A program made the translations under genes and the position numbers. From the NCBI GenBank assembly GCA_039638295.1, contig JBDIWJ010000025.1:1-25934 (forward strand): 25,934 bases of DNA. The letters are read 5' to 3'. The DNA comes from Candidatus Phoenicimicrobium oleiphilum (GTDB lineage: Bacteria > Atribacterota > Phoenicimicrobiia > Phoenicimicrobiales > Phoenicimicrobiaceae). A model generated the notes under the pieces. That model did no database searches and was not told the origin of the DNA. It saw only the letters and a list, made by a program, of their open reading frames with translations. This document shows, one piece after another, positions 1,464 to 25,934 of the stretch (position 1 is the first letter of the stretch; each line of letters opens with the position of its first letter).

Positions 1464-1491
1464 GAAGGATTTTTGAAATAAATGTAGTAAT
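1464..1491 (+). promoter_or_regulatory. Possible sigmaH-like promoter upstream of the AOR operon
   Basis: AGGA(1466-1469)-N14-GTAG(1484-1487)TAAT. The same spacing occurs upstream of the nitrilase-like gene. Confidence 0.35.
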
Positions 1492-1724
1492 AACATTAAT
1501 AAAGGATAATTTAAAAATAAAAATCTAAATGCTTAATTTTGAGAAATGTTCATGTTAGTCCAAAAGTTAAACTACTAAAAATGAAAAAGGAAAATTTCTT
1601 TGGATTACAAAAAAGGAGGTGAGATAGAGGAAAAAATTATCGGAAAATAAATATTTAGATATTTTATATTTTTAAATCTTTTTAGGGGGTGATCATTGGG
1701 TTTAAATATATAAATGAACTAAAC

Positions 1725-1823
1725 AATTTTCCGAACCAGATGGCCTGTAATTTTAAATTATGGCTCCTGGTCGATAGGGTATGACGGGAAACGGTTATGC
1801 CTCCCATTAAGGAAAGGAAAATT
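1725..1823 (+). ncRNA. Moco RNA motif / riboswitch, probably the tungsten-cofactor (Tuco) variant
   Basis: P1 AATTTTCC/GGAAAATT; CCGA after P1; P2 ACCAG..GCC-hairpin-GGC..CTGGT; AGGGT...GGAAAC...GCCTCCC...GGAAAGG signature; lies directly upstream of an AOR operon. Confidence 0.85.
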
Positions 1824-1868
1824 TAATGTAAAGTTAAATTTATCATTTTTTTATAAGGAGGTATTTGA

Positions 1869-2360: not shown

Positions 2361-4171
2361 TGATTAAGGGAGGATTTCAAGGAAAAATTTTAAGAGTAAA
2401 TCTTACTAGCGGAAAAATAATGGTAGAAGACTTAAATGAAGATTGGGCTAAAAAATTTATAGGAGGAAGAGGATACGGAACTAAAATTATGTATGAAGAA
2501 GTTGACCCCAAAGTAGACCCTCTTTCTGAAAAAAATAAAGTGATTATTGCTACCGGGCCACTCGGAGGGACATTAGCCCCATCTTCCGGAAGGACTATGG
2601 TTATTACTAAAGGTCCTCTTACCGGAACCATTGCCTGTTCCAACGCTGGTGGTTATTTTGGCTCAGCTTTAAAGCATGCAGGTTTTGATATGGTTGTAAT
2701 TGAAGGAAAAGCTAAGGAACCAGTTTATCTATGGATATATAAAGGTGAAGCGGAACTTAGGTGTGCAAAAGATATCTGGGGAAAAACATCAGATGAAGCG
2801 GACCAAATATTAAGAGAAAAAACTCATCCCAAGGCAGAGACTATGGAGATAGGCCCGGCTGGAGAAAAGCAATCTCTTGTCGCTAATGTAATGTTTAATG
2901 GTCATAGAGCTGCCGGAAGAACCGGAGTGGGTGCAGTTTTGGGGAGTAAAAACTTTAAAGGGATAGCTGTAAGAGGTAACTTGGGAGTAAAGGTAGCTGA
3001 GCCAGAGAAATTTGTGGAAGCGGTTTATAAAACCAGAGAAATATTAAGTAAAGATGCCTTCTCTGGTGGTGGTGCAGCAATGTTAGGAACAGCAATGTTG
3101 GTAAATGTTATAAATGGTGTCGGAGCCTTTCCTACCAAGAATGCTCAAGATGCATATTTCCCTGAAGCAGAGAAGATTAGCGGGGAAACTTTAAGGGAGA
3201 GAAACTTGATAAGGAATGAAGGTTGTGCCGTATGTCCTATCGGATGTGGCAGAGTTACTGAGATTAAAGAGGGTAAATATAAAGGAGCTCACGGCGGAGG
3301 ACCTGAATATGAATCAGTATGGGCTTTAGGGGCAATGTGTGGTGTATCAGACCTTGATGCAGTAGTTATGGCCAATTACCTTTGTGATAAATATGGGATG
3401 GATACTATTTCAGTCGGTTCCACTGTGGCCTGTGGTATGGAACTTTATGAAGAAGAATATATACCTAAAGAAGATTTTTCCTTACCTTTAACTTTTGGCT
3501 CAGGAGAAGCTTTGGTAGAAGCAATAAAACTAATGGGCGAACAGAAAGGGAAGTTAGGTAAACTTTTAGCCCAAGGTTCGTATAGATTAGCAAAACATTA
3601 TGGACATCCCGAACTTTCTATGACTGTTAAAAAACAGGAATTCCCCGCTTATGACCCGAGAGGGGTAAAGGGGATTGGTTTGGAATATGCTACCAGTAAC
3701 CGGGGTGCCTGCCACGTAAGAGGATATACCATTGCTCCCGAAGTTCTAACTGGAGCAGCTGACCGGTTAAAATATGAAGGCAAAGGTGAACTGGTAAAAA
3801 TATTCCAAGATTTAACTTCTGCCTTGGATTCAACCGGTATATGTCTATTTACTACTTTCGGTTTAGGAGGGGAAGATATCGCTTTACTCCTATCTACTGC
3901 TACCGGATTTAAAGTGGATATAAATGAATTTATGAAAATTGGAGAGAGAATCTGGAATTTAGAAAGACTATTTAATATTAAGGCTGGATTTACCAGAAAA
4001 GATGATAATCTTCCGATGAGAATATTAAAAGAACCGATAAAAACCGGTCCCTCTAAAGGAGAGACAGAGGAATTAGACAAAATGCTTGATGATTATTATA
4101 AGGTGAGAGGCTGGGATAAGAACGGTATTCCTTCTAATGAAAAGCTAAAAGAGTTGGAGCTTTTGGACTAA
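2360..4171 (+). CDS. aor: Tungsten-dependent aldehyde ferredoxin oxidoreductase, catalytic subunit
   Basis: 603 aa; GKILRVNL, FIGGRG, AAGRTGVGAVLGSKN, CAVCPIGC, GPEYE, CDKYGMDTIS, RGACH, DSTGIC, YYKVRGWD motifs. Confidence 0.95.
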   Translation: MIKGGFQGKILRVNLTSGKIMVEDLNEDWAKKFIGGRGYGTKIMYEEVDPKVDPLSEKNKVIIATGPLGGTLAPSSGRTMVITKGPLTGTIACSNAGGYFGSALKHAGFDMVVIEGKAKEPVYLWIYKGEAELRCAKDIWGKTSDEADQILREKTHPKAETMEIGPAGEKQSLVANVMFNGHRAAGRTGVGAVLGSKNFKGIAVRGNLGVKVAEPEKFVEAVYKTREILSKDAFSGGGAAMLGTAMLVNVINGVGAFPTKNAQDAYFPEAEKISGETLRERNLIRNEGCAVCPIGCGRVTEIKEGKYKGAHGGGPEYESVWALGAMCGVSDLDAVVMANYLCDKYGMDTISVGSTVACGMELYEEEYIPKEDFSLPLTFGSGEALVEAIKLMGEQKGKLGKLLAQGSYRLAKHYGHPELSMTVKKQEFPAYDPRGVKGIGLEYATSNRGACHVRGYTIAPEVLTGAADRLKYEGKGELVKIFQDLTSALDSTGICLFTTFGLGGEDIALLLSTATGFKVDINEFMKIGERIWNLERLFNIKAGFTRKDDNLPMRILKEPIKTGPSKGETEELDKMLDDYYKVRGWDKNGIPSNEKLKELELLD

Positions 4172-4172
4172 G

Positions 4173-5402
4173 ATGAAATACTTAATTATCGGAGCAAGTG
4201 CGGCGGGGTTATCCGCCGCACTAAAAATAAGAGAACTGGATGTAGATGGAGAAATAACTGTCTTATCAGAAGAGAAATCTCTGCCTTATAGTAAAATGTC
4301 TCTCCCATATCTGTTATCAGGCGAATGCAGTAAAGAAGAAGATTTATATTTAGGAATACCGGAAGGCGTAAAATTATTATTAGACAAAAAAGTGGTATCT
4401 TTGAGAGAAGAAAGGAAAGTGGTAGAAACAGAGACAGGAGAAGAATTTTCCTATGATAAGTTACTTATTGCTACCGGTGCTCACCCCTATCTTCCTGAGG
4501 TAGAAAAGAAAGGTTTTCCTCCCATACTTTCGATAAGAAATTTAGAAGATATATCCCGACTTAAAGACAGTATTAAAAATTCGAAGGAAAAGAGAGTTAT
4601 ATTATCAGGAGCCGGCCTGGTCAATTGTGAGATAGCATGTGCTCTTTTAAAGATAGGAGTACCTTCTGTTTTTGTAATTCGTTCGAACAGAATTTTGTCT
4701 CAAATTTTAGATGAAGAAGGGTCGAGAATAATAGAGGGCATAGCCAAAGAAGAAGGGATAGAATTACTGACTGGTGAAAATATAAAAACAGTTGAAGAGA
4801 AAGATGGTATAACTTATGCTACCCTTGAGTCTGGAAAAGTTCTGAAAGGCAGTTGTGTAGTCTTTGGAAAAGGAGTGAGGTCTTCTGTTGATTTTCTAAA
4901 AGGCACTGGGATAAAAGTAGGTCAAGGTATAAGAGTGGATAAATACTTGCAGACCTCGGTTGAAGATATTTATGCTGCTGGTGATGTTACCGAAAGTATA
5001 GATTTGGTTTATAATGATATCAGAATGCATGCCTTATGGCCGGTAGCTGTAGAGCAAGGGAAGATTGCTGGTGCAAATATGGTCAGAGGTGGAATAGAAT
5101 ATTCAGGAGAAGTTTCAAGAAACATACTTACTATATTTGGGAAAATAATTTTTACCGGAGGTATTAGCACAGAGGATAAATTTGAAGTTTATAAAGAACA
5201 TCTTGCCGGAGAATACCAAAAAATATTAATTCACAATAACAAGCTGGTAGGTTTTGTATTTGTTGGAGCAGTAGATAATCCAGGTGTATATCTTTTTATT
5301 ATGAAAAATAGAATAGATGTAGGGAATAATATAAACTTGCTTTTAAAGGGTGCTCTTTCGTATCCGGTAATTTATCCTTCTATAAGAAAAGTAGGCTTTT
5401 AA
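4173..5402 (+). CDS. FAD-dependent pyridine nucleotide-disulfide oxidoreductase family protein (AorC-like subunit)
   Basis: IIGASAAG, YDKLLIATGA, TSVEDIYAAGD motifs; starts 1 nt after the aor stop. Confidence 0.88.
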   Translation: MKYLIIGASAAGLSAALKIRELDVDGEITVLSEEKSLPYSKMSLPYLLSGECSKEEDLYLGIPEGVKLLLDKKVVSLREERKVVETETGEEFSYDKLLIATGAHPYLPEVEKKGFPPILSIRNLEDISRLKDSIKNSKEKRVILSGAGLVNCEIACALLKIGVPSVFVIRSNRILSQILDEEGSRIIEGIAKEEGIELLTGENIKTVEEKDGITYATLESGKVLKGSCVVFGKGVRSSVDFLKGTGIKVGQGIRVDKYLQTSVEDIYAAGDVTESIDLVYNDIRMHALWPVAVEQGKIAGANMVRGGIEYSGEVSRNILTIFGKIIFTGGISTEDKFEVYKEHLAGEYQKILIHNNKLVGFVFVGAVDNPGVYLFIMKNRIDVGNNINLLLKGALSYPVIYPSIRKVGF

Positions 5403-5452
5403 AAATAAAAAAGTATTTAGAGAGAAGAACATAATAGACTTAAGGTGAATAA

Positions 5453-5731
5453 ATGATTGTAAAAGTAAAAGCATTTGCCAATTTAAGAGAAGTTTTCGGA
5501 GGGGAGATAAAGATAAAGCTAAAAGAGGGAGCTGTTTTTAAAGATCTCCTCTCCCCCGTTTTTTTGCCACCTAAGGCAGTAGAGGCAATAATAGATAGTG
5601 AATCAGGAGAGATTAAGCCCTCCATACTCATCTTGAAGAATGGGAGGAATATCAGGTTTTTAGGAGGCCTCCTTTCAAAATTGGAAGATGGTGATGAAGT
5701 GAGCATATTCCCTCCATTAGGTGGGGGATAA
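5453..5731 (+). CDS. MoaD/ThiS family ubiquitin-like sulfur carrier
   Basis: 92 aa; VKAFANLRE N-terminus, ILKNGRNI, LEDGDEVSIFPPLGGG C-terminal di-Gly. Confidence 0.9.
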   Translation: MIVKVKAFANLREVFGGEIKIKLKEGAVFKDLLSPVFLPPKAVEAIIDSESGEIKPSILILKNGRNIRFLGGLLSKLEDGDEVSIFPPLGGG

Positions 5732-5800
5732 TTTATATAAGTAATTAGACTAAAAATGAGATAATTTTGAAAAAGAAACTTTAAGGAAAATATTATTTTT

Positions 5801-5858
5801 GTTATTCCGCACTTGATGCGGAATCCATAAGTAAGAGCGTATTGCAGTGCGCCCCTAT
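5801..5858. repeat. Two adjacent REP-like palindromes
   Basis: GTT-ATTCCGCA-cttga-TGCGGAAT-CC (5801-5826) and degenerate GTAAGAGCGTATTGCAGTGCGCCCCTAT (5831-5858). Confidence 0.6.
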
Positions 5859-6018
5859 AATTACCGTAACATATCTTCTTTACTGCTTTTAAGTTCAGTA
5901 AATTAATTTTCCCATCTTTATTGCTATCTTTTAGAATTTTAAAAAAGAATGATTTTTAGAGTATTATGGCGTATAATATTTAAATATAAGAGAAAAAAGA
6001 AAAATTTAAGGAGTAGGT

Positions 6019-6672
6019 ATGGAATTAAAAATATCTGAAAAATATAAAAAATTGATAGTTGATACCGGAAGAGAATTGTATAAACAAAATTTGACTATTG
6101 GGACCTGGGGGAATATTAGCTTTCTGGATTCAGATACTGATTTGGTTTATATCAAACCAAGTGGTATAGAGTATAATGAGATCGAAACTAAAGATATAGT
6201 AGTATTAGACAAGAAAGGTAAAATCGTTGAAGGGACTAAAAAACCCTCTATTGAGACCTCTATGCATCTTGCTATATATAATGCCCGTGATGATGTGGGA
6301 GCAATAATTCATTATCATCCCATTTATTCAAGTGTATTGGCAGTAACAGGACTAAGCCTCCCGGGGATCAGTGAAGATTTTGTGCAATTGGTGGGAAATA
6401 AGGTAGTATGTGCAAAATACGGATTACCTGGCTCAAAAGAATTAGCTAAAAATGCGGTAATTGCTTTGGGAGAAAGGAAGGCAGTTTTTCTTCTTAATCA
6501 TGGTACTCTCTGTGTGGGTAGAGATATGAAAGAGGCGATGAAGGTCTGTTCTGTAGTAGAGAAAACAGCTCATATTTATATTTTAAGTAAAAGTATAGGG
6601 AAGTGTAGAATAATTCCTGAAGAAGACATTAAGGCAATGCAGGATTTTGCTAAAGATAGTTATGGTAACTAA
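6019..6672 (+). CDS. Class II aldolase/adducin family protein (FucA/AraD-like)
   Basis: TWGNIS, IKPSG, KPSIE, HLAIY, IIHYHP, LLNHG metal-binding motifs. Confidence 0.9.
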   Translation: MELKISEKYKKLIVDTGRELYKQNLTIGTWGNISFLDSDTDLVYIKPSGIEYNEIETKDIVVLDKKGKIVEGTKKPSIETSMHLAIYNARDDVGAIIHYHPIYSSVLAVTGLSLPGISEDFVQLVGNKVVCAKYGLPGSKELAKNAVIALGERKAVFLLNHGTLCVGRDMKEAMKVCSVVEKTAHIYILSKSIGKCRIIPEEDIKAMQDFAKDSYGN

Positions 6673-6730
6673 ATAAGCCTCTGCTTGCCCTTTTTGTTAA
6701 TTACTAAATCATTGTATTTACATCCCATGT

Positions 6731-6824
6731 CTATACGCTATATGCTGTATGCTATGCGCTAATAATTTCTGCAATTCTTGCCCACATCTTATATTTATTA
6801 CTCATCACTTGTAACTCATTACTG
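6731..6824. repeat. Degenerate heptamer tandem repeats
   Basis: ctatacg ctatatg ctgtatg ctatgcg (6731-6758) and attactc atcactt gtaactc attactg (6797-6824). Confidence 0.6.
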
Positions 6825-6832
6825 TATTTTCG

Positions 6833-7735
6833 CTATGGGACAATTAATTTTAATCTTTTTGGCAGAAGAGTGATAATAAATTTTTTTTGGCCTTCTATTA
6901 CCTCTCCACTCACCTGAGCCAGGATAGGTTCTGAAGATTCAATTATTATTTCTTTAGCCCTATAAAAATTTATCCCTTTAATACTTCTATGTGTGCCTTT
7001 AAATACTTTAGGAATGCTCATAAGATATTTAAATCTTCCCATCTCTTCTACTACACATACTTCTAACAAACCATCATCTAATATGGCTTCCGGTGTTATC
7101 TTAAATCTTCCTCCATAAATTTTTCCATTGCCAACAGCTATAAATAGAATTTTGGACTGAGTCTCTTGCCCGTCAATCTTTATCTTTACTTCGTGGTAAC
7201 CAAAAGGAGAAAGAAGTTTTTTTATGGTAGCAAAGACGTAGATATAAGCACTGAGAGTATTCCAATTAGGGTGTCGATTTTTCAATTGATTGGCTAAATG
7301 GGTTACTTCTGCATCAAATCCTATACCGCAGATATTGGCGAAATATATCTGATTATTAATTAGTCCTACATCTATTTTTTTAGTTTTACCTTTAATTAAA
7401 ATTTTACAAGCTTTAATTATTTCAGAAGGAATATTTGTACTTTTAATAAAATCATTAGCCCATCCTAAAGGGATTATTCCTAAGGCAGGGCTATTTTTTG
7501 ATTTCATAATTCCATTTACTATTTCATTAACTGTTCCGTCTCCACCTACTGATACAATAAGTTCTGCACCATTATCAGCTGCTTTTTGAGCAAGTTCTAC
7601 TGCTTCTCCCTGGTGGGAAGTGGTACAAACTTTGTAATTTAATCCCTTTTTTTTGAGATATTCTAATACTGTTGCCAGGTGATGATTTGGTTTTCCACCA
7701 CCAGCAGTTAGATTGACTATAAGTTCTGCTTTCAA
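6833..7735 (-). CDS. Diacylglycerol kinase family lipid kinase (YegS/BmrU-like)
   Basis: IVNLTAGGG, VGGDGTVNEIVNG, GIIPLGWANDF, GIGFDA, GNGKIYGG, DDGLLEV; AAAGGAG SD before the TTG start. Confidence 0.9.
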   Translation of the reverse strand: MKAELIVNLTAGGGKPNHHLATVLEYLKKKGLNYKVCTTSHQGEAVELAQKAADNGAELIVSVGGDGTVNEIVNGIMKSKNSPALGIIPLGWANDFIKSTNIPSEIIKACKILIKGKTKKIDVGLINNQIYFANICGIGFDAEVTHLANQLKNRHPNWNTLSAYIYVFATIKKLLSPFGYHEVKIKIDGQETQSKILFIAVGNGKIYGGRFKITPEAILDDGLLEVCVVEEMGRFKYLMSIPKVFKGTHRSIKGINFYRAKEIIIESSEPILAQVSGEVIEGQKKFIITLLPKRLKLIVP

Positions 7736-9490: not shown

Positions 9491-9553
9491 AAATGTAAAC
9501 AAAGGTGCCTGGTAAATGTAAACAAAGGTGCCAGGCACCTTTGTTTACATTTA
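9491..9553. repeat. Perfect 20-bp-arm palindrome with an upstream duplicated arm
   Basis: TAAATGTAAACAAAGGTGCC-A-GGCACCTTTGTTTACATTTA (9513-9553), preceded by AAATGTAAACAAAGGTGCC (9491-9509). Confidence 0.9.
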
Positions 9554-9566
9554 GGTGAGAAGGAAA

Positions 9567-10161: not shown

Positions 10162-11496
10162 ATGAGTCTTTTTGATAATTATGAAAAAAACAAAATGAAT
10201 AATAATGCCCCTCTTGCCGATAGGATCAGGCCGGAAAGATTAGAGGATTTTTTGGGGCAGGAAAAGATTATTGGTCCAGGGAAGCCTTTGCGTAGGGCTA
10301 TCGAAAAAGATGAACTCCAATCGATTATCCTATGGGGTCCCCCCGGTTCTGGGAAAACAACTTTAGCCAGAATTATTGCTAAAATGACTAAAACCCATTT
10401 TGTTCCTTTTAGTGCAGCAATTTCCGGCATACCTACTTTAAGGAAGATTATCAAAGAGGCGCAAGACCGAAGAAAATATCGACACCAAAGAACTATTTTA
10501 TTCGTAGATGAAATTCATAGATTTAACAAAGCTCAACAGGATGCTTTTCTACCCTATGTAGAAGATGGAACTATAATCTTAATTGGAGCTACTACTGAGA
10601 ATCCTTCTTTTGAGGTTATTTCACCTCTCTTGTCAAGGTCTACTGTTTATATATTAGAACCATTATCTAAAGAAGATTTGAAAAAGATTTTAGAAAAGGC
10701 TTTAGTAGATAAAGAAAGAGGTTTGGGGAAATATAAGGTGAAATTAGAACCGGAGGTCTTGGATTTTATTATTGAACTTGCTTATGGAGATGCCCGGATA
10801 GCTTTAAATATTTTGGAATTTGCAGTAATAACTACCAAGCCAGATAACCAGAATATAAGAAATATAAATTTAAAAACTATAGAAGAAGTGGTTCAGAAAA
10901 GGTGTTTACGTTATGACAAGACAGGGGAAGAACACTATAATATTATTTCTGCCCTCCATAAAAGTATGCGTGATTCTGACCCTGATGCCGCTATTTACTG
11001 GGTAGCTCGTATGTTAGAAGCAGGAGAGAATCCCCTTTATGTTGCCCGGCGGCTGGTGAGATTTGCTTCAGAAGACATAGGTAATGCTGACCCCCAGGCC
11101 TTACAGGTAGCAGTTGCTGCAATGCAGGCAGTCCATTTTTTAGGTATGCCCGAGGCTAATTTAGCTTTAGCTCAAGCTGCAACCTATTTAGCCTATGCCC
11201 CTAAAAGTAATGCCCTCTACAAAGGTTATCAGCTTGCTCAGGAGGATATTAAGAAATGGGGACCATTGCCAGTCCCCTTAGTTATTCGTAATGCCCCCAC
11301 TTCTTTAATGAAAGACCTGGGTTATGGTAAAGGTTATAAATATGCTCACAATTTTGAAGGAGGCTATATTGTTCAGGAACACCTTCCCAAAGAATTAAAA
11401 GGAAGAAGATATTATTTCCCCACCGATAGGGGTTTTGAAAAAGAGATTAAGCAGAGGCTGGAAAAATTAAAAGACAAATATAAAAATAGTCGTTAG
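10162..11496 (+). CDS. rarA: Replication-associated recombination protein A (AAA+ ATPase)
   Basis: PLADRIRP, WGPPGSGKTT, FVDEIHRFNKAQQD, GATTENPSF, ISALHKSMR, ASEDIGNADP, GYKYAH. Confidence 0.96.
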   Translation: MSLFDNYEKNKMNNNAPLADRIRPERLEDFLGQEKIIGPGKPLRRAIEKDELQSIILWGPPGSGKTTLARIIAKMTKTHFVPFSAAISGIPTLRKIIKEAQDRRKYRHQRTILFVDEIHRFNKAQQDAFLPYVEDGTIILIGATTENPSFEVISPLLSRSTVYILEPLSKEDLKKILEKALVDKERGLGKYKVKLEPEVLDFIIELAYGDARIALNILEFAVITTKPDNQNIRNINLKTIEEVVQKRCLRYDKTGEEHYNIISALHKSMRDSDPDAAIYWVARMLEAGENPLYVARRLVRFASEDIGNADPQALQVAVAAMQAVHFLGMPEANLALAQAATYLAYAPKSNALYKGYQLAQEDIKKWGPLPVPLVIRNAPTSLMKDLGYGKGYKYAHNFEGGYIVQEHLPKELKGRRYYFPTDRGFEKEIKQRLEKLKDKYKNSR

Positions 11497-11584
11497 TGAA
11501 TAGTAATTCGTATCGCGCATTGCGTATCAAGTATCACGTGAAGAAAATCAGGAGTCAGGAGTAGGGGCACGATGTATCGTGCCC
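11487..11584. repeat. Heptamer array followed by a GTAG-type REP
   Basis: tagtcgt tagtgaa tagtaat tcgtatc gcgcatt gcgtatc aagtatc; tcaggag x2; GTAG-GGGCACGAT-gt-ATCGTGCCC (11561-11584). Confidence 0.75.
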
Positions 11585-11621
11585 ACAAGAGAAATTACGC
11601 AATAATATAAGTAAAAAAGGG

Positions 11622-15067: not shown

Positions 15068-15134
15068 ACCTTACGCGTAGCACGAAAATAAAAAAAGTAT
15101 ATAACAAAAAATAGTGTGGAGCGGATAGGATATC

Positions 15135-15301
15135 GGTTACCCAATTACCCGGTTAGCCAGTTTACCAGTTAAAATATAGAGGTTACAGATTGCGGGTTAT
15201 AAATTTACAGAGAGAAGTAGGGGCGTATTACATACGCCCTCATAAGGTAGAGAGACGGTATGCCGTGTTAAAGAAATAGACAGGCGGGACACCTGTCCTA
15301 C
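15135..15301. repeat. Octamer/heptamer microrepeats plus three GTAG-type REPs
   Basis: ggttaccc aattaccc ggttagcc agtttacc; GTAG-GGGCGTAT-tac-ATACGCCC (15217-15239); GTAG-AGAGACGGTATGCCGTGT (15247-15268); GACAGG-cgggaca-CCTGTC-CTAC (15279-15301, inverted). Confidence 0.7.
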
Positions 15302-16163: not shown

Positions 16164-16763
16164 ATGCATATTTCAGAAGGAATATTATCTGCACCCGTAT
16201 TAATTACGGGTGCAGGTTTAACTGCTACGGCAGTAGGATATAGTTTAAAGAAGATGGAACATAAAGAAGTGCCCAAAGTAGCCATTCTATCTTCTGTTTT
16301 TTTTGTTGCTTCTTTAATTCATGTTCCTTTAGGCCCTTCAAGTGTGCATCTGATTTTAAATGGAGTAATAGGATTATTATTAGGTTGGCCTGCCTTTCCA
16401 GCGATATTGGTTGCTCTTGCCCTACAAGGCGTGATCTTTCAATTTGGAGGCATTACCACCTTAGGAGTAAATACTTTTAATATGGCCTTACCGGCAATTA
16501 TCTGTTTCTATCTATTTAACCGAGGAATTAAAGGGGCGAATAATTTTATTGCCCTGATCCTGGCCTTTGTTTGCGGATTTTTAGCGGTGTTGTTAAGTGG
16601 AATAATGGTAGCAGCCGCCTTAGTTTTTACTGGAGAACCATTTATACAGATAGCCAAATTAGTGTTAATTGCTCATCTACCGGTAATGATTTTAGAAGGT
16701 GTATTAACAGTGTTTTGTATAGGATTTTTGAGAAAAGTTAAACCAGAAATATTAAATATTTGA
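16164..16763 (+). CDS. cbiM: ECF S component CbiM/NikM
   Basis: MHISEGIL N-terminus, SSVHLILNG, FQFGGITTLGVN, AHLPVMILEG. Confidence 0.92.
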   Translation: MHISEGILSAPVLITGAGLTATAVGYSLKKMEHKEVPKVAILSSVFFVASLIHVPLGPSSVHLILNGVIGLLLGWPAFPAILVALALQGVIFQFGGITTLGVNTFNMALPAIICFYLFNRGIKGANNFIALILAFVCGFLAVLLSGIMVAAALVFTGEPFIQIAKLVLIAHLPVMILEGVLTVFCIGFLRKVKPEILNI

Positions 16764-16815
16764 TTATACAGATTAATTCAGTGGTTACAACCCAAAAAGT
16801 AAGCAGTATAGTAAT

Positions 16816-16892
16816 GTAGGGGCACGATGCATCGTGCCCACAGAAAAAATTAGGTAATAATGTAGTGAGGGCACAATTTATTGTGCCCCTAC
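16816..16892. repeat. Inverted REP doublet (REPIN-like)
   Basis: GTAG-GGGCACGAT-gc-ATCGTGCCC (16816-16839), 29 nt spacer, GGGCACAAT-tt-ATTGTGCCC-CTAC (16869-16892). Confidence 0.8.
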
Positions 16893-17030
16893 AACCCAGT
16901 TATAACCAACAAATCCAAAATTATTATAAAGTTATTTACGATACACTGTGTACACACTCTGCTTTTAAATATTTTTTAGTTTTTTAAGGAATAACCATTC
17001 AGTATATTTCAAATATATCGGAGGGATAAG

Positions 17031-18399: not shown

Positions 18400-19073
18400 C
18401 TAAAAGAGAAAATGAAACTGTAATCAAAATTACTGACCTTTCCTTTGCTTATCCCTCCCGGGATTATGTATTTAAAAAGTTCAATTTTGATTTTTTTAAA
18501 GGAGAAAGGATAGGTCTGGTTGGGCCTAATGGAAGTGGGAAGACTACTCTTTTCCATCTTATTATGGGACTTTTACATCCATCAGAAGGGAAGATTGAGA
18601 TTTTTGGAAAAGAACGAAAAGTAGAGAATGATTTTGTAGAAGTTAGAGAAAAAATCGGCCTGGTATTTCAGGACCCCGATGATCAATTATTCAGTCCTAC
18701 TGTGGCTGAAGATATTGCTTTTGGTCCTCTAAACTTGAGAAAAAATCGTCAAGAGACTGAAAAGATTCTAAAAGAAACCTTAGAGACGTTGGGTTTAGCT
18801 GGTTTTGAAGATAGGATTACTTATAATCTTTCCTATGGAGAAAAAAGATTAGTCTCTTTGGCTACTGTTCTCTCTATGCAGCCGGAAGTTTTACTTCTTG
18901 ATGAACCAACAGCCTGGCTTGATGAAAAGACGATTAAAAGGATAGCCCGGATTCTAAACAATAATTCTAATTTATCTTATGTAATTATTTCTCATGATAA
19001 AAAATTTTTAAAAGAGACTACTAATTGTATATATGAAATGAGAAATGGAGAGATTAAGATTAAAAAAAAGTAG
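18396..19073 (+). CDS. cbiO: ECF ATPase CbiO/NikO
   Basis: GPNGSGKT, FQDPDDQLF, LSYGEK, LLLDEPT, IISHD. Start placed at the ATGA overlap (18396). Confidence 0.92.
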   Translation: MTKRENETVIKITDLSFAYPSRDYVFKKFNFDFFKGERIGLVGPNGSGKTTLFHLIMGLLHPSEGKIEIFGKERKVENDFVEVREKIGLVFQDPDDQLFSPTVAEDIAFGPLNLRKNRQETEKILKETLETLGLAGFEDRITYNLSYGEKRLVSLATVLSMQPEVLLLDEPTAWLDEKTIKRIARILNNNSNLSYVIISHDKKFLKETTNCIYEMRNGEIKIKKK

Positions 19074-19144: not shown

Positions 19145-20836
19145 CTATAATTCTACTTTGGACTTTAATTCACTATAACTTCCTGGGAAGTATTTCGTTT
19201 CTTTTCCATTTATCTCCAATATTTCATCTGCTAGTTTTTTTATCAAATATCTATCATGACTCGCCACAATTATAGTACCCGAATAATCAGCAAGTGCATT
19301 CTCTAAAGCTTCACGAACATGTACATCAAGATGATTAGTTGGTTCATCTAAAATAAGTACATCAGGTTGAGATGCCAATACTTTTGCTAAACTAACCTTA
19401 ACACGTTCACCGATGCTAATATTTTTAATCTTTTCATATACTCTTTTCTGGCTAAATTTAAGACAACCTAATACAATCCTTACAAATGTTTCATCTGAAT
19501 TTTCTCGCTTAACTTCAGTTAAAATTGTATTCTCCATGTTTAGATTTTCTTGCTCTTGAGCATGGTAGCCAATCTTTATATTGGTCCGCCATCGAATAAA
19601 ACCAGAATCAGCGGGAATTTCACCTAATAAAATTCTAATAAGAGTTGTTTTCCCTGATCCATTAGGCCCAATAATCCCAATTGTTTTACCTCTTATTATT
19701 GTAAAATTGAGCGAATTAAATAAGATCCTATCTCCAAACGATTTTGACAATTCACAAACATCAAGCACTATTTTACCAGAGTGACGGGCAGTCTCAAGTT
19801 TTACTCTTATCTGTTTCTCAACGGCTGGTTTGTTCACTTTTTCTTCTTCTATCATCTGTTTAATGCGAGTTTCAACTGCTTTTGCTCTCTTGGCTAACTT
19901 AGCTGCGCGGTGAGTAATAAAGCCTTTATCTTTTGCACCAATTTTCTCCTTCTCCTTCCTTTTTGCCCATATTTTACGCCGTTTTGCTTCTCTCTCCATC
20001 TTCTTTATTTTTCGGTTCTGTTCTTCATATTTCTCCCATGCTTGTTTCTCTTTTAAATTTCTCTCATAGATATAAAAACTGTAATTACCAGAGTATATTG
20101 TAGATTTACCATCTCTAAGTTCTAAGATAGATGTAACTACTTTATTAAGAAAATATCTGTCATGTGAAGTAACAAGGATTGTACCTTTATACCTTCTCAG
20201 GTACTCTTCAAGCCATTCCAGAGAATTGATATCTAAATGATTAGTGGGTTCATCAAGAATTAACAGATCGGGTTCTTCTAACAGAATTTTTGCCAATTCT
20301 ACTCTGGTTTTTTCGCCCCCACTTAGCTTGTTATAATTTCTTTTCATATCATCCTTAGTAAAACCAAGCTTAGAAAGGGCCTTTTTTATTTTTTCCTCTA
20401 ATTGAAATCCTTCTATTGTTTCATATTTGCTAAGCAGTTCTCCATAATCCCTAAGAACTTCTGTATCCACATCATTTTCCAATCGTTTTTCTAAAACACG
20501 GAGATTTTTTTCAACTTTATAGACCTCTGGAAGAGCAGCTTTTACTTCTTCTAAAAGAATTCTGTCTGAATCCCTACTTACATCTTGTGGAAGATAACCA
20601 ATTTTTAAATCACATTTCGGCTTTTCTATATTACCTTCAAAGTCAGTTAACTCTCCCACCAAAATCTTTATTAATGTGGATTTGCCAGATCCATTTGGAC
20701 CTACAATCCCAATCTTTTCTTTCAATCCGATAGTAAAAGACACCTTCTCAAGAAGATTTCTATCCTGAGAACTATATCTATAAGTAAGATTATTCACTCT
20801 TAGTAATGTACCAATTAAATCCATAAGAAATCCCAT
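19145..20836 (-). CDS. ABC-F ATPase, antibiotic-resistance (ribosomal protection)-like
   Basis: Two NBDs (GPNGSGKS/GPNGSGKT, LSGGE/ISIGE, LDEPTNHLD x2), no TM segments; long linker WAKRKEKEKIGAKDKGFITHRAAKLAKRAKAVETR. Confidence 0.9.
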   Translation of the reverse strand: MGFLMDLIGTLLRVNNLTYRYSSQDRNLLEKVSFTIGLKEKIGIVGPNGSGKSTLIKILVGELTDFEGNIEKPKCDLKIGYLPQDVSRDSDRILLEEVKAALPEVYKVEKNLRVLEKRLENDVDTEVLRDYGELLSKYETIEGFQLEEKIKKALSKLGFTKDDMKRNYNKLSGGEKTRVELAKILLEEPDLLILDEPTNHLDINSLEWLEEYLRRYKGTILVTSHDRYFLNKVVTSILELRDGKSTIYSGNYSFYIYERNLKEKQAWEKYEEQNRKIKKMEREAKRRKIWAKRKEKEKIGAKDKGFITHRAAKLAKRAKAVETRIKQMIEEEKVNKPAVEKQIRVKLETARHSGKIVLDVCELSKSFGDRILFNSLNFTIIRGKTIGIIGPNGSGKTTLIRILLGEIPADSGFIRWRTNIKIGYHAQEQENLNMENTILTEVKRENSDETFVRIVLGCLKFSQKRVYEKIKNISIGERVKVSLAKVLASQPDVLILDEPTNHLDVHVREALENALADYSGTIIVASHDRYLIKKLADEILEINGKETKYFPGSYSELKSKVEL

Positions 20837-20991
20837 ATATCCTTTGCTATAGAAAGTTTATTTGTATCCAACTTGATACAAAAATGGCAAAAAAAGTTCA
20901 TACCCCAGACATCGTGAGTTAGAAGCAGAATATAAAAATATACTTTCTTCCATAAGAGATTTGGAAGTACTTGCTGATTCGAATTTTATAA

Positions 20992-22944
20992 TTATAACAC
21001 ATCTGCTGAATATAGTTTTTCAATAAATCTTTTTATCTGAGTTGTTTTTATACCGTATTTATTCTTTATAACTTCTAAAGCAAGATTAAGATTACCACTT
21101 TTAAAGAATGCATTTAAAAATTCATACGATAGTTTACTCAATCTAACGTTTTTCAAAGTATCTTGAGCTAATTTATCTTTAACTTTATATATAAGGAGGT
21201 ATTCAGTTTCTTCCTCACAATTAAATTGCACCTGTCTTTCATTGACATCAATTGCAAGATCACTTATTTTATAATTAAAGATTCCTATCCAGTAAATCTT
21301 ACCTTTAAAATCTTTAATTCCGTCAAAATTTTCATGTAAGACTATAGCATTTAATGCAAGCTCATACTTCAATATATCGTGTGTTAGTTTATTCATTTTA
21401 CGAAATTTATAAAGATTGTATAAAAAACTATTAATTTCTTTACGAAAAAAATTTACAGGATTTATATTACTACAATTTCCCCTTATATTTAAACTTTCAT
21501 TCTTACAATATATCTTCCATAATTTTGTGATTTTTATAAAATTTTCTTTTTCATAGTATTTCCAAAGTACTGAGAATCTAGGAAAGAAATGGTAAAGTGT
21601 TGGTATTAGGATGTGTGCTGCAATAATAAAATCTCTTGAGAGATGTTTAGTAGGAAAGTAGTAATAAAAAGGAAATACATCTTTAAAATTTTTTATCAAG
21701 GGAAAGTCTAATATCCTTGTATCTACTATACCAGCGTTATATCCATCAAATTTTAGTAAATTTTGATAAGCATTAAACAAAGCTGTACCAGACAAAGGAA
21801 TCAAAAGATAGAAGGCAAAATGTGCGCCAAGCATTCTAGATTTAAGTAGCATTGTTAACGTATCTTCTACATCCTTTTTTTCTTCTATTGGGAACCCAAT
21901 TATAAAAGATGTCGTGCATTTTATTCTTAATTTCTTTGTCTTTTCTATACTTTTAATCGCTTGCTTAAGCTTTAGATTCTTACCTATATATTCCTGGATC
22001 CTTGAGGAGCCAGATTCAATTCCATAAAAAATTTGTCTTAATCCACCATCCTTTAGCATCATCAATTCTTCTTCTCTTGGATGATCAGCGCGTCCATGAC
22101 ATCGCCAAGTTATGTTGAGATTCTCTTCCTTTATTTTCTTAGCAAGATTTAAAAGCTGTCTTTTGTGGATAGTGGCACAATCATGCAGGAAAAAGAAATG
22201 ATTTATTTGGTATTTCATAGAAAAGTATTTAACTTCTTCTAAGATTCTATTAATAGTTTTAAATCGACTTTTTCTTCCCCAATGTATACTTGTTGCACAA
22301 AATTTACAAGCAAATGAACAAGAACGCCCTATTTCTATCGTTATTTCCTTAAAATCCCGCGCAAAAGGATGAAGATGGTAAGCAGGAAAGGGAAGTAGAT
22401 CTAGATTTTGAATAAGATTTTCTGAAGGATTTCTAACTATAGAAGATCCATTTCTGTAAGTGATGCCATCTATCATATTTAATTTGTCTATATTCCCATT
22501 TAGGAGAAGTTTTATTAAATTCAGGAATATTTTTTCTCCTTCTCCCCTAACTATAATATCAACGCACCTAAAAGTTTTGAGAGTTTCTCTATCAGAGGTA
22601 GTTGCTTGTGGTCCGCCAAATACAATTATTGCGTCTTTCACCCTCCTTTTGTATTCTTCTGCAATTTTTATTGTTACAGGATAAGAATAGCACATTGTAG
22701 TAAACCCTAATATAGTATATGATCTACTTGCTAAATAACAAGCTACCTCTCTGTGGAAATTCTTATCCCGTCTTAATGTTTTCTTCTCAACCAATTTATA
22801 AAGATCAACAATTTCTACTTCTATGCCTGCCTGTTCTAATACCGCACTAAGAGATAGTATTCCAATGGGTATTCCATATCCTTCATCTGAATTAAGAATT
22901 GTTTCACATTCTATAGGAGGTACAGTAATTAATGCGACTCGCAT
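20992..22944 (-). CDS. Cobalamin-dependent radical SAM enzyme (putative RiPP methyltransferase)
   Basis: B12-binding domain (PIGILSLSAVL, GGPQAT, IVRGEGE), CSFACKFC, GIESGS, FIIGFP, long C-terminal extension. Confidence 0.88.
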   Translation of the reverse strand: MRVALITVPPIECETILNSDEGYGIPIGILSLSAVLEQAGIEVEIVDLYKLVEKKTLRRDKNFHREVACYLASRSYTILGFTTMCYSYPVTIKIAEEYKRRVKDAIIVFGGPQATTSDRETLKTFRCVDIIVRGEGEKIFLNLIKLLLNGNIDKLNMIDGITYRNGSSIVRNPSENLIQNLDLLPFPAYHLHPFARDFKEITIEIGRSCSFACKFCATSIHWGRKSRFKTINRILEEVKYFSMKYQINHFFFLHDCATIHKRQLLNLAKKIKEENLNITWRCHGRADHPREEELMMLKDGGLRQIFYGIESGSSRIQEYIGKNLKLKQAIKSIEKTKKLRIKCTTSFIIGFPIEEKKDVEDTLTMLLKSRMLGAHFAFYLLIPLSGTALFNAYQNLLKFDGYNAGIVDTRILDFPLIKNFKDVFPFYYYFPTKHLSRDFIIAAHILIPTLYHFFPRFSVLWKYYEKENFIKITKLWKIYCKNESLNIRGNCSNINPVNFFRKEINSFLYNLYKFRKMNKLTHDILKYELALNAIVLHENFDGIKDFKGKIYWIGIFNYKISDLAIDVNERQVQFNCEEETEYLLIYKVKDKLAQDTLKNVRLSKLSYEFLNAFFKSGNLNLALEVIKNKYGIKTTQIKRFIEKLYSADVL

Positions 22945-23614
22945 TCTTTATACCCCACTAACTTCTGCCATCTAATAATAGATGATATTCCTGCAAAAGC
23001 AGCTGTAAATAAAAAGACACTTCTTACATCAATCATATCGTTCATAAATCTGGCTATCCCCATTGAGAATAGACTTACTATATTATTGGCAGATTGAAGA
23101 GTTAAAAAAATTTTACTATGATAATCTTCAGGAACAACTTCCTGTGAAATTGTCTCTTCATTTTTCTCATACAAAGCCATAAAAATACCCCTAACGATTA
23201 ATATAAATACATCATAATAGAATCTACTTAAGGCGAGCATGAAAATTGTCATACTTATTACACTTCCTGCCAATGCAATCCCTCTACTTTTATTATAAAT
23301 TAAAAATCTCGTTAAAAAGTTTAAAATAAACATTCCTATTACTGCACTTATTCTATTGGAAATAATATAATAGCCCATACTTAGCTACTCCAGCATTTAA
23401 AGCCTCCTTCGGCAGAAAGGACCAAAAATTATTAATGGTATAGCTATAATTATCCATAATGTGCCAATTAAAATCTCTGACTTGATTGTCTCGTAAATAA
23501 TATAGCTGGCTATTATTATTCTGACCAATCTCCTATAAAAGAAACAAGCATACCTATAAAGTTCTTAACAAAATTCCTATTCTTTAATAGAACTATCTGT
23601 GAAGATATTAGCAT
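22929..23614 (-). pseudogene. Decayed MFS exporter (frameshifts plus internal deletion)
   Basis: ATG 23614: MLISSQIVLLKNRNFVKNFIGMLVSFIGDW then stop. Shifted frame IIIASYIIYETIKSEILIGTLWIIIAIPLIIFGPF, then FLPKEALNAGVAKYGLL, then the 149-aa ORF with QEVVPEDYHSKIF. Total length is far below a 12-TM MFS. Confidence 0.75.
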
Positions 23615-24965
23615 CTTTCTCTCTACAAATACTCCTTATTCTGTCTTGATATACACATTCTATAATTTTAGGTTGTATCTCCTCCAGAAGTCTTTTTTCA
23701 CAATAAATTTTCTTGAAATCCCCATACTTTAAGTAGCTTTTATACTTGCATCCACCCCCACAAATAGGAAGAAATTTACATTCATAACATTTTGCAGGAA
23801 AAGAGATTTGTGAAAGTTCATCATGGATTGAATTGTAACCTTCATTAATTACTTCTCCTACTGAGAAAACATTAAAACCCATCATGAAGGCACATTTATA
23901 TATTTTCCCATCTGGACCTATGATTATATTGTTTTTATGAGTGAATGTACAAGGATAGAATCTTCCTAAAGTCTTGGATACTTTTAAATTGCGTTTATTT
24001 ATCTCCTGCAAAATGTGCTTATATGCTTCTATTAATTCTTGTTCATTAAGCTTATAAACTTCATAATGAGAAGACAAATTCTTTTTAGCAGCAGGCAAAA
24101 CAGGTTCTGGAGATACAATGATTTTCTTGTCTATCCCATTCTTTATAAATTCATCGAAAAGTTCACTAAGTGATAATATATTTTGTTTATCAAAATTCAC
24201 TTCCACTATAATTTCTACCTTACAAGATAAATCAGATATCTTTTTTATAGCTTGAATAATTTTATTAAAACTTCCTGACTTGTTTTTAAATAGACGTCTT
24301 TTATCATGAATTTTCCTAGGCCCGTCTAATGTAAATTGGATTCCCTTAAGCTCATTAAGAATTAAGTTGTTAAGATTTATTTTTTCAATAAGAACTCCAT
24401 TAGTAGTTAAACTAAATCCAAAGCTTAGTCCTCTTTGAATAGATATTTTTCTTACTCTATCTATGAAGAAATTAAAACTTTCTAAATCAACCAAGGGTTC
24501 CCCTCCAAATAGATTTAAAGAAATATTCCTGATAGACTTGTTACTATCAAGATATCGTTCCAACCACTTGAGTGTTTTTTCTTTTATAAAATTGTTCATT
24601 TGAACACCTTTTATGTGTTGTTGAAAACAATAAACACATTCCATATTACATTTTGTAGTATAGGCTATTACAAAGTATAACCTATCATTAGTAAATTTAC
24701 CCTTTTTGAAAACTTTCTCTATAACTTCTTTTTCATCAACATCATCTTTTACTAAAAAACCTAGCTCTTCTAGTTTTTTTAAACTCTGAAAAGCTCCACA
24801 GTTTTTATCTTCTTTGTCTTTTTTACTCGAGATCAATATCTCTAAATTTGTTTTATCTTTTTTTGATAATATGATGAGAGTCTCTTTTACATAGTTATAT
24901 CCTAAGAGATAATTGTCATTGTTTGAATAAGGAAACCACAAATTATAGTTTGAAAATTTATACAT
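23577..24965 (-). CDS. Radical SAM/SPASM-domain peptide maturase
   Basis: CNMECVYC, FGGEP, TTNG, TLDG; SPASM Cx18C...Cx2Cx5Cx3Cx15C; RRE-like N-terminus. ATG 24965 (MYKFSNYN) is preferred over TTG 25007. Confidence 0.9.
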   Translation of the reverse strand: MYKFSNYNLWFPYSNNDNYLLGYNYVKETLIILSKKDKTNLEILISSKKDKEDKNCGAFQSLKKLEELGFLVKDDVDEKEVIEKVFKKGKFTNDRLYFVIAYTTKCNMECVYCFQQHIKGVQMNNFIKEKTLKWLERYLDSNKSIRNISLNLFGGEPLVDLESFNFFIDRVRKISIQRGLSFGFSLTTNGVLIEKINLNNLILNELKGIQFTLDGPRKIHDKRRLFKNKSGSFNKIIQAIKKISDLSCKVEIIVEVNFDKQNILSLSELFDEFIKNGIDKKIIVSPEPVLPAAKKNLSSHYEVYKLNEQELIEAYKHILQEINKRNLKVSKTLGRFYPCTFTHKNNIIIGPDGKIYKCAFMMGFNVFSVGEVINEGYNSIHDELSQISFPAKCYECKFLPICGGGCKYKSYLKYGDFKKIYCEKRLLEEIQPKIIECVYQDRIRSICREKDANIFTDSSIKE

Positions 24966-24991
24966 AGCCTTAAATTCTCCTAAATAAAAAT

Positions 24992-25211
24992 GGTTCTTCT
25001 CCAACAAGTGTAGTCATCCACAAAAATAGATCTTTGACAATTTAGTTGAAAGGTAATCTAGTCTTTGCTGTATAGCTTATGTCAAAAACAACATAACTAA
25101 CAAATACAGGAGGGAGACAAGATGCCAACCAATATTATAGTGGACTGGATCAATTTGCCATTAGAGAACGATGAGACAGAAGACTTACTTCTATTTAAAT
25201 TAACGACTTAA
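24992..25211 (+). mobile_element. Possible truncated ISL3-family left end
   Basis: Starts GGTTCTTCTCC after an A/T-rich tract; AGGAGG SD then ATG 25122 MPTNIIVDWINLP..., a 29-aa ORF. No right end or target duplication found. Resemblance is from memory only. Confidence 0.35.
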
Positions 25212-25237
25212 TATGGAAGTCTAACTTCTGCCTCATC
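25170..25237 (-). other. Long imperfect stem-loop downstream of the precursor gene
   Basis: Minus strand GATGAGGCAGAAG pairs with CTTCTGTCTCATC (13 bp, one G-U), plus an inner ACTTC/GAAGT stem. Confidence 0.6.
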
Positions 25238-25274
25238 AAATTCCCATAAGTTGATTTGAGTTTTTAAAACCTTA

Positions 25275-25427
25275 TCATCGGGGTACAGGCATTTTACAAG
25301 CAATCTCTGAAAGTTCTGATACTACTTCCTGAACAACTTCAAATTTGAATATGTTTTCTACTGTATCTATATTCTTCTCTACCTTAATGCTTTTTTCCGC
25401 TATATTTTCTAATTTTTTCTTGCTCAT
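25275..25427 (-). CDS. Putative RiPP precursor peptide (50 aa)
   Basis: AAAGGAGG SD, ATG 25427, MSKKKLENIAEKSIKVEKNIDTVENIFKFEVVQEVVSELSEIACKMPVPR, TGA TAA; first gene upstream of two radical SAM genes on the same strand. Confidence 0.75.
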   Translation of the reverse strand: MSKKKLENIAEKSIKVEKNIDTVENIFKFEVVQEVVSELSEIACKMPVPR

Positions 25428-25712
25428 ATTTGCTCCTCCTTTCATGAAAAAATTTGTCAAAAGCGCCTTTTAGAGTTTTCTGAAGCCCTATTACAATTTT
25501 TTATCTCTTACAACATATGAAGGTAGAACTACTACTGCAACATTGAATAGTATCACTCACCTGCTACCAAACAATTTTGACGAATAATTTAGTGCATAAT
25601 ACAAACATTGTCTTTAGTTGCTGTTTTTGCATTCTCCCAACATTGTCCAACTGATTTTTCCCTGAAACATGATGCCATTGGTAACAAGGAACGGGGTCAT
25701 GAAACTTCCTAC

Positions 25713-25850
25713 CTATCTCTCCACAACAGAAACCTCAGGTGAAAAACTCTGTGTTTGCTGGCTATCAGAAGATGGATCTCCTGAAACTATGGTATTTATG
25801 CATAGACTAAGACTGAGAGTAAGAACCAGGGCAACAAAAAGTTTTTTCAT
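25713..25850 (-). pseudogene. Short signal-peptide-bearing ORF, probably a truncated exported protein
   Basis: Not in the track. AAGGGGGT SD, MKKLFVALVLTLSLSLCINTIVSGDPSSDSQQTQSFSPEVSVVER then TAG; the frame stays open about 30 codons beyond the stop. Confidence 0.45.
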
Positions 25851-25934
25851 TTAAACCCCCCTTAACATTTATTTTTTTCTAAGTATATACCTCTCCATAT
25901 GATTTTCAAATTTGGCAAGCCCTAAAACGCCTAT

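Follow-up and report, generated by a model that had tools for sequence, protein, structure and literature searches.

Five genes at one end of a contig from Candidatus Phoenicimicrobium oleiphilum appear to specify a small modified peptide and, possibly, protection of the ribosome against it. The stretch analyzed here, called the window, is the complete contig JBDIWJ010000025.1 of assembly GCA_039638295.1 (G000:C25, 25,934 nucleotides). The genes encode a 50-amino acid (aa) peptide (precursor B), a radical S-adenosylmethionine (SAM) enzyme with a SPASM domain, the remnant of a major facilitator superfamily (MFS) exporter, a B12-dependent radical-SAM enzyme and an ABC-F protein. An original prediction, made from the window alone, had read the block as a new cluster for a RiPP, a peptide made on the ribosome and modified after translation. 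Open reading frame (ORF) calls recovered the five same-direction minus-strand units where they had been placed, with both end-to-start overlaps (SPASM/MFS and MFS/B12) and convergence with cbiO. The RiPP assignment is upheld by peptide-recognition modules in the models of both enzymes and by recurrence of the SPASM-x-B12 order in distant records. The 50-aa ORF is very probably the substrate of the pathway. We tentatively propose, with somewhat less than even confidence, that the product is a short peptide with a Cys-thioether crosslink and C-methylation that blocks the ribosome, and that the ABC-F protein confers self-protection.

Precursor B has a strong ribosome-binding site, AAAGGAGG ahead of ATG. 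Its leader is acidic and hydrophobic (..FKFEVVQEVVSELSEIA), and it ends in SELSEIACKMPVPR, giving a short tail, C44-K-M-P-V-P-R50, that contains the sole Cys. The tail lacks aromatic residues, Asp, Glu, Asn and Thr, and the precursor lacks Gly and a PP motif. The only relative among 5.8 billion proteins is a 94% allele, whose 3 changes all fall within residues 5-19 of the leader; among 1.84 billion representatives this allele and one unrelated repeat protein were found. No NCBIfam match was obtained at E 10. A by-eye suggestion that precursor B is a geopeptide precursor was rejected, as it did not match a hidden Markov model of 67 such peptides extracted from 70 loci and has a single Cys, no CC and no Gly, whereas geopeptide precursors carry a hydrophobic-x-x-G motif and, close to their end, paired Cys. 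The 120 nucleotides (nt) past the precursor B stop fold at -32.9 kcal/mol, and 0/500 mononucleotide shuffles were equally stable (z = -2.26 for the whole spacer). The precursor of a second module described below, precursor A, is likewise trailed by a hairpin. The precursor B hairpin is likely an mRNA stabilizer or partial terminator.

Deposited copies of the SPASM enzyme are 462 aa long, which places its start at ATG 24965. The radical-SAM motif CxxxCxxC lies at 120/124/127 and the SPASM Cys residues are 353, 372, 407, 410, 416, 420 and 436. The best curated family was TIGR04280 (geopeptide maturase), at 223.5 bits against a cut-off of 400; the homologues P0003 and P0004 scored 228.9 and 187.6 bits with the same model. 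Scores for CefB (NF038107, 201 of 600 bits), SCIFF (104 of 425 bits) and PapB (144 of 340 bits) also fell below the cut-offs. In the AlphaFold model (predicted local distance difference test, pLDDT, 90) residues 22-102 form the three strands and three helices of a RiPP recognition element (RRE). From residue 19 the model aligned to CteB 1-448 over 392 residues (Z 28.2, root-mean-square deviation (rmsd) 5.1), and CteB was the top match by sequence and by fold, RRE included. The seven SPASM Cys of CteB leave an open, substrate-binding iron (PMC8326336). By analogy, we infer from the Cys count that the auxiliary site of the window enzyme is open as well. The combination of RRE and SPASM architecture with a candidate donor Cys, C44, in the core is that of ranthipeptide and sactipeptide systems. 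A thioether formed at Cys44 by the SPASM enzyme is modestly favored.

The relatives of this enzyme were placed in a tree of 47 proteins built by a quick method. The window SPASM enzyme, its 93% allele, P0004 (52%) and P0003 (50%) form a clade (support 99) apart from the geopeptide and CefB enzymes. Four reachable members of a wider 20-row SPASM clade are preceded by peptides with RPxQKxRxK-like ends, one of them RPSQDDRLK. These peptides lie before related SPASM enzymes at L016 7808-7975, L017 7513-7695, L056 758-910 and L064 1609-1761; three of the four loci are from Melainabacteria, and a B12-type radical-SAM gene is downstream in two. Separately, 29-aa peptides ending HKD(S/G)CGY were seen directly upstream of a distinct SPASM clade in L019 and L099. 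In the broader SPASM clade a short peptide with Cys near its end was recorded at 70/159 other loci, a count that is no test because the search rule demanded Cys.

Other chemistry by the SPASM enzyme, namely a C-C or C-N crosslink at Lys, Arg or Val, epimerization or Cys oxidation, or a B12 enzyme that does not methylate, is improbable. Both enzymes score far under every curated cut-off, and the fold matches that follow CteB (TigE, anSME, ChlB and SuiB) are within 3-8 Z units of it; AprD4 and OxsB, which are not methylases, are among the closest folds of the B12 enzyme. Several further observations count against a Cys44 thioether. The acceptors in known ranthipeptides are Asp, Glu, Asn and Thr (PMC8326336), none of which is present in the precursor B tail. 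Seven SPASM Cys are shared with TigE, which forms C-C bonds using the tyrosine of a GYW motif (PMC10878394). The peptides of the sister subclade, with their RPxQKxRxK ends, are Cys-poor, so the enzyme lineage need not act on Cys. On the other side, the tail offers no aromatic residue for cyclophanes, its lone Cys is the only one of the precursor, and CteB is the best match. The GYW motif was not found in the SPASM sequence, and the single core without repeated Val/Ile cores differs from what defines a cyclopropyl synthase (TigE/TvgB).

The top distant homologues of the SPASM (52%) and B12 (42%) enzymes have accession numbers two apart in 5/5 named records (MEM5830726-28, MEO0296781-83, MEO0300346-48, MEM2174535-37 and MEM2260777-79), labeled WOR-3 or Micrarchaeia. 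This spacing fits a predicted order of SPASM, one gene, B12, as at the window. No diverged sister precursor, with which Cys44 and the Pro-rich tail could be compared, and no ABC-F gene of a distant cluster were seen, a further point on the negative side. The genome collections searched with the SPASM enzyme are samples, and misses there show no absence. Matches listed in these scans comprised 23-31% relatives and the window's own sequence. Close matches at the thresholds used were found in 0/272 genomes (phylum of G041), 0/232 and 0/301; a further sample gave distant matches (29%) in 2/401 genomes, and the window's own phylum gave matches of 28-29% in 2/85 other genomes. Viral contigs yielded 14 weak partial matches, and the best among the plasmid matches listed were 27-28%.

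The B12 enzyme was best matched by ApyD (NF050148) at 253.8 bits, with a cut-off of 750. Its model (pLDDT 91.5) closes with an RRE-like unit of three strands and three helices at the C-terminus. For residues 412-650 the fold matches were TglHI chain 8hci_C (Z 13.5, rmsd 5.5, 205 aligned), which we take to be TglI, the precursor-binding partner, and NGO1945 (Z 11.1); the C-terminal half is thus TglI/DUF2063-like. A profile comparison of this C-terminus with the SPASM N-terminus was weak (probability 6, E 0.006). ApyD is an RRE-containing B12 radical-SAM enzyme that C-methylates Tyr (PMC11117315). The best Foldseek matches of the model were CysS, MgmA and TokK. Because the whole-protein fold matches include both methylases (CysS, MgmA, TokK, TsrM) and non-methylases (AprD4, OxsB), methylation is likely but not certain, and we regard C-methylation by this enzyme as probable.

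Some peculiarities were noted among B12 homologues. Two alleles are annotated at 567 aa, without the first 83 residues. P0135 and P0136 share 99% identity in their first 284 aligned residues and ~30% past residue 330, and the window enzyme is nearer P0135 in mid-protein and nearer P0136 towards the end. This pattern may come from two paralogues in tandem, from recombination or from faulty assembly. NCBI labels P0255, a partial B12 protein of the same 90% cluster, as Actinobacteria, which may mean cross-phylum transfer or mis-binning.

Protection-type ABC-F proteins act against lincosamides, streptogramins and pleuromutilins. The ABC-F protein of the block has both domains intact, with two Walker A and two LDEPTNHLD motifs, and scored 495 bits with the ribosomal protection family NF000355 (cut-off 380); the cut-offs of the named subfamilies Vga, Lsa, Sal, CplR and OptrA were not reached. 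The best PDB sequence matches were VmlR (6HA8, 296 bits) and VmlR2 (8BUU, 294 bits, presumably from Neobacillus), followed by EttA (292 bits). Residues 166-543 align with VmlR chain 105-483, and in this alignment the linker is collinear and 27 residues longer than that of EttA over the shared span. As aligned, the linker appears to have the extended length of resistance-type ABC-F proteins. In VmlR the length difference from EttA allows reach to the peptidyl-transferase center (PMC6130385). In the alignment VmlR W223 and F237, whose roles are described in the same source, stand opposite W290 and F306. Residues 290-325 are invariant in 7/7 other alleles, with 59 variable sites elsewhere. Its predicted ribosome-protection type points to a target for the product.

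The ABC-F gene appears to belong to the block. A search of 29 other genomes of the family, with 16 candidates scored in each, gave no homologue at E <= 1e-80, which indicates that the gene came with the block. One of 85 phylum genomes has a homologue, at 36% identity. Single contigs in sequencing runs X14 and X15 extend from the ABC-F gene to the precursor.

We place self-protection by the ABC-F protein just short of an even chance. A reading in which the RiPP is real but the ABC-F protein is a passenger resistance gene directed at peptidyl-transferase antibiotics of other organisms, or a translation factor for a charged, Pro-rich precursor, is unlikely. Such a reading draws on the arm of the protein, an EttA-like trait missing from VmlR, on its EttA score, which is near that of VmlR, and on the ability of ABC-F proteins to resolve stalls at Pro-rich and at charged motifs (PMC11381351). 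NF000355 is broad, and the invariance of the linker tip is weak evidence, with p = 0.016 when the whole protein is the reference and p = 0.14 when ABC domain 2 alone is. The gene is also last in the operon, after a 155-nt gap, and in run X20 its region is on separate, deeper contigs than the SPASM gene, although contig depth is a poor measure. Opposed to these are the resistance-type linker length with the VmlR Trp/Phe pair, the contiguity with the block in two independent runs, the empty result in the 29 family genomes and the absence of a PP motif from precursor B.

The exporter, an MFS remnant in the original prediction, is a pseudogene both here and in the three other strains seen, which is a mark against a functioning pathway. 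The block was found at ~98% identity in contigs of three other studies, from marine sediment (X14), a cold seep (X15) and groundwater (X20). All three have 343-344 extra bases at 23409-23411 and one extra base at 22952; the full indel lists of X14 and X20 contain nothing at the other two MFS frame breaks. The lesions common to relatives indicate that the exporter decayed before these strains split. With the extra base at 22952 the MFS fragment of the three relatives ends earlier, and the MFS/B12 overlap is unique to this strain. MFS gene calls on contigs matching X14, X15 and X20 in size are 128-aa fragments. The MFS fragment differs from that of X14 by 5 non-synonymous changes and 1 synonymous change. 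In the SPASM gene the counts were 6 and 9, with 67% non-synonymous expected (p = 0.03). These counts are from one strain pair, this strain and X14, for which 32/34 differences in that piece were listed.

Decay or silence of the whole block in this lineage, with genes persisting by drift or for the resistance gene alone, is improbable. Several MFS lesions, two of them common to relatives, a neighboring regulator cut after ~85 codons and two B12 alleles at 567 aa agree with it. The enzymes tell otherwise: SPASM (462 aa), B12 (650 aa) and ABC-F (559 aa) keep their full length here and on the X14- and X15-sized contigs, and SPASM shows a deficit of amino acid changes. Moreover, the same island holds a complete regulator and two MFS genes that are intact. 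The cluster is rare and partly decayed, and its chemistry is a prediction.

The block makes up one half, module B, of a larger island, which lies between cbiO and ychF. A near-identical locus, L096, possibly from the same source, extends 7 kb further and joins contig C48 of this genome. Starting at cbiO, the island runs through ABC-F, B12, MFS remnant, SPASM, precursor B, a 45-aa ORF, truncated regulator, MFS, GNAT, MFS, SAM-fold protein, acyltransferase-like protein, arginase-family protein, HExxH membrane protein, precursor A and a second 45-aa ORF. The far end has a whole regulator (551 aa), a copy of the cbiO 3' part and ychF. This copy lies just ahead of ychF at C48:9067-9434 and is identical at 318/368 bases, with almost complete identity in the first ~190. 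The duplication marks the insertion site. In 17/20 stretches from 19 family genomes cbiO is followed directly by ychF, and the other 3 end at a contig edge. The empty site in 17 family genomes establishes horizontal acquisition, as the original prediction had proposed; the crosslink and methylation that it had added are predictions. Features that it had not included are the 45-aa signal-peptide ORF, the shared leader DNA and the continuation of the island past the contig end.

Two observations concern the insertion site itself. G017, counted among the 17, has two overlapping cbiO pieces (G017:C14 3889-4388 and G017:C304 1-470), which could mask a duplication of this kind. Compared with window 18625-18735, L096 (14252-14273) is short of ~88 bases of cbiO near the start of the duplicated segment, possibly as an effect of repeat assembly.

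Module A is a second undescribed RiPP-like cluster. Precursor A has 32 aa and ends CNVIRCVIRC, and the cargo consists of arginase-family, acyltransferase-like, SAM-fold (methyltransferase) and HExxH membrane proteins with MFS and GNAT genes. The acyltransferase-like protein, which we presume to be one from its motifs, matched nothing in Pfam or the PDB, and the peptidase label of the HExxH protein rests on HEAGH and an M50 match below the cut-off. The product is likely an ornithine-containing, acylated and methylated peptide; lipopeptides made with an arginase and an acyltransferase provide a comparison (PMC8784127). In G351, of another genus, module A alone occupies the cbiO-ychF site. Six cargo proteins are 98.5-100% identical and GNAT 95%, against 90% for ychF, 85% for cbiO and 83% for the regulator. 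The higher identity of the cargo than of its neighbors indicates recent transfer and shows the modules to be separable.

Each module begins with a regulator (truncated before B), a 45-aa signal-peptide-like ORF and a non-coding leader common to both. In G000:C48, G351 and G017 there are matches of 84-89% to bases 1-440 of window 25430-25934. Covariation in the leader is weak (a double change in 1/48 pairs), with no Rfam match, and the leader likely holds a regulated promoter. Four alleles of the 45-aa ORF, 64-73% identical where measured, have by eye a common signal-peptide-like start and variable tails; that of the window ends ER. The ORF is likely a pheromone propeptide. It is divergent from the TPR/HTH-like regulator, which is full length at C48:7432-9087 and cut after ~85 codons beside module B, a truncation that counts against the pathway proposed here. 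The 551-aa regulator has a central HTH-like segment and belongs to no curated family (Pfam HTH_26, E 0.02, below cut-off). Its Atlas neighbors are TPR+HTH proteins at 0.90, a borderline score, with 161-170 shared features, and it is present in 2/85 other phylum genomes. Regulator and 45-aa ORF may be a quorum-sensing pair of the RRNPP kind, in which the gene of a TPR receptor adjoins that of a secreted propeptide. Across the cassettes the peptide has four alleles and the regulator three (82-83% identical), which suggests distinct signaling types. Cargo behind the G017 copy is beyond the end of that contig.

This setting bears on what the product does. That it is a signal or a metal- or redox-active peptide and not an antibiotic, any effect on the ribosome being regulatory, is very improbable. 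A very short core in a pheromone-like cassette and an insertion site adjoining the NikR/CbiMQO metal importer would suit such a role. Module A, whose chemistry is unrelated, is inserted there too, so the neighbor is probably an insertion hotspot only, and a dedicated protection-type ABC-F protein is best explained by toxicity. A functional tie to cobalt supply through cbiMQO was set aside, since the B12-free module A occupies that site.

The scheme we propose for a ribosome-blocking peptide starts from the observed gene content, recognition-type folds in the enzyme models, linker length, mobility and exporter decay. The secreted 45-aa propeptide and the TPR/HTH regulator would switch the operon on with cell density, the module A regulator acting in trans. 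Both enzymes would bind the precursor leader, probably at the FKFEVV strand. As in CteB, Cys44 would bind auxiliary cluster I at its open iron; it would form a thioether to a carbon in K45-R50 or just upstream, and the B12 enzyme would C-methylate Met46, Pro47, Val48 or Pro49. The leader may be cut in trans by the module A HExxH protein or a TldD/E pair. The predicted product, of 7-9 residues, would be cationic, Pro-rich and ~0.8-1.0 kDa, and would leave through a neighboring MFS protein. It would block the peptidyl-transferase center, from which the ABC-F protein would displace it. A wider proposal, which we consider doubtful, is that these are an undescribed class of very short thioether-cyclized, C-methylated RiPP antibiotics acting at the peptidyl-transferase center with VmlR-type ABC-F immunity. 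Their producers would be anaerobes of the deep subsurface, in which the cluster would be swapped as one module for another behind an expression cassette under pheromone control.

Composition and surroundings of the block were compared with the genome (Table 1 gives coordinates). The AT-richness noted originally is real but mild: GC is 30.7%, against 35.2% in the left part and 33.4% in the genome, and 12% of 1206 equal-size genome windows are as low. GC at third codon positions is 0.21-0.24 in the three large cluster genes and 0.26-0.34 in 7 left-side genes. As also noted there, the block is free of dispersed repeats; none of its positions matches elsewhere in the genome. Intergenic repeats with 10-67 genome matches occur at window 9491-9564, 11487-11609, 15120-15205 and 16763-17001. 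Pfam found no peptidase, YcaO or Lan domains in the 24 window ORFs scanned, in agreement with the earlier statement. For peptidases this holds within the window, the HExxH protein being in the sister module and the TldD/E-type pair elsewhere in the genome. A promoter and terminator scan was at chance level (38 vs 33; 2 vs 2.3), the DNA upstream of the ABC-F gene has no unusual structure (z -0.87), and Rfam gave no family within the island. A molybdenum/tungsten riboswitch (RF01055, 63 bits) is at window 1717-1835, ahead of ferredoxin and aldehyde oxidoreductase genes. Cluster DNA was found in oil-field, aquatic, sediment and seep runs of 12 studies (9 rows are possible sources). RNA runs X5, X17 and X18 contain it as contigs; X5 covers spacers too, so it may be DNA and is no evidence of expression.

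Table 1. Features of the island; positions refer to the window unless a locus is named.
Feature	Position	Strand	Remarks
Precursor B	25275-25427	minus	50-aa ORF
SPASM enzyme	23577-25007	minus	likely start 24965; RRE and seven SPASM Cys
MFS exporter pseudogene	22929-23614	minus	three frames, shortened
B12 radical-SAM enzyme	20992-22944	minus	650 aa
ABC-F	19145-20836	minus	559-563 aa, predicted ribosomal-protection type
Hairpin downstream of precursor B	25164-25245	minus	likely mRNA stabilizer or partial terminator
Conserved non-coding leader	25470-25712	minus	common to modules A and B
45-aa signal-peptide-like ORF	25713-25850	minus	four alleles compared
cbiO 3' part	18663-19029	plus	repeated at far end of island
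Module A	L176 (G000:C48) 881-6850; L183 3554-9526	minus (L176)	second RiPP-like cluster
Regulator/secreted-peptide/leader cassettes	L176 7095-9087; L183 9775-11770; L182 211-2220; window 25470-25850		

The cluster matched no described class in the curated families or in open-access papers, in line with the original prediction, in which the combination had not been recognized. In the open-access literature, judged mostly from listings, neither this cluster nor a radical-SAM RiPP operon with a protection-type ABC-F protein was found described, and nothing relevant appeared on 'geopeptide'. New chemistry is possible, since both enzymes fall outside curated families and the tail offers neither an aromatic nor an acidic residue as acceptor. 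Because the protection gene points to the likely target, five genes and a core of 7-9 residues provide an inexpensive way to test for a new inhibitor of the ribosome. If the proposal is true, ABC-F genes could serve as a marker for mining ribosome-targeting RiPPs, and a RiPP would be shown to select in nature for resistance proteins of a type that matters clinically. Two unrelated RiPP pathways behind one regulator and secreted-peptide cassette share one chromosomal site in slow-growing subsurface anaerobes, among which chemical competition is little studied.

Among known systems, CteB (5WGG/5WHY), PapB and NxxcB share the N-terminal RRE, radical-SAM barrel, seven-Cys SPASM domain and a Cys-containing core. 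The window SPASM enzyme differs in its ~20% identity, a single Cys, a tail without an Asp, Glu, Asn or Thr acceptor, and the added B12 enzyme and ABC-F protein. Geopeptide and CefB systems supply the best-scoring SPASM families (223.5/400 and 201/600 bits) and a loosely similar precursor layout of hydrophobic strand, ~8 residues, Cys and short tail, but their enzymes fall in a separate clade of the quick tree. In the aminopyruvatide pathway the RRE-containing ApyD, of the family closest to the window B12 enzyme, acts near the peptide C-terminus, and the precursor has a CBX2-3G motif and a C-terminal Asp (PMC11117315). Precursor B has neither of these and no Tyr, its tail being CKMPVPR, and no MNIO or P450 was found in the island ORFs scanned.

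Bottromycin is made with YcaO enzymes, is methylated at Pro and Val, and has an N-terminal core with a follower peptide. A short RiPP whose genes include an exporter and cobalamin-dependent radical-SAM methyltransferases, it blocks the 50S A site (PMC7113386). The window cluster has its core after the leader, a SPASM enzyme and an ABC-F protein, and scans of 24 ORFs of the window and of ORFs of module A found no YcaO. Bottromycin is a functional analogue, and the window cluster is not a member of its family. VmlR and VmlR2 (6HA8, 8BUU; PMC6130385) have the same linker length and Trp/Phe positions, but the window ABC-F protein has an arm and sits inside a RiPP operon; its identity to the best ABC-F proteins of the plasmid collection is ~35-37%. 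In streptococcal SHP/Rgg operons of the tryglysin type, a regulator and a signal-peptide gene precede the precursor, radical-SAM enzyme and transporter, and the product is antibacterial (PMC8092268). The island cassette, with a 551-aa regulator, a different phylum and swappable cargo modules, nevertheless resembles, by analogy, the quorum-sensing control of streptococcal radical-SAM RiPPs (PMC10075063).

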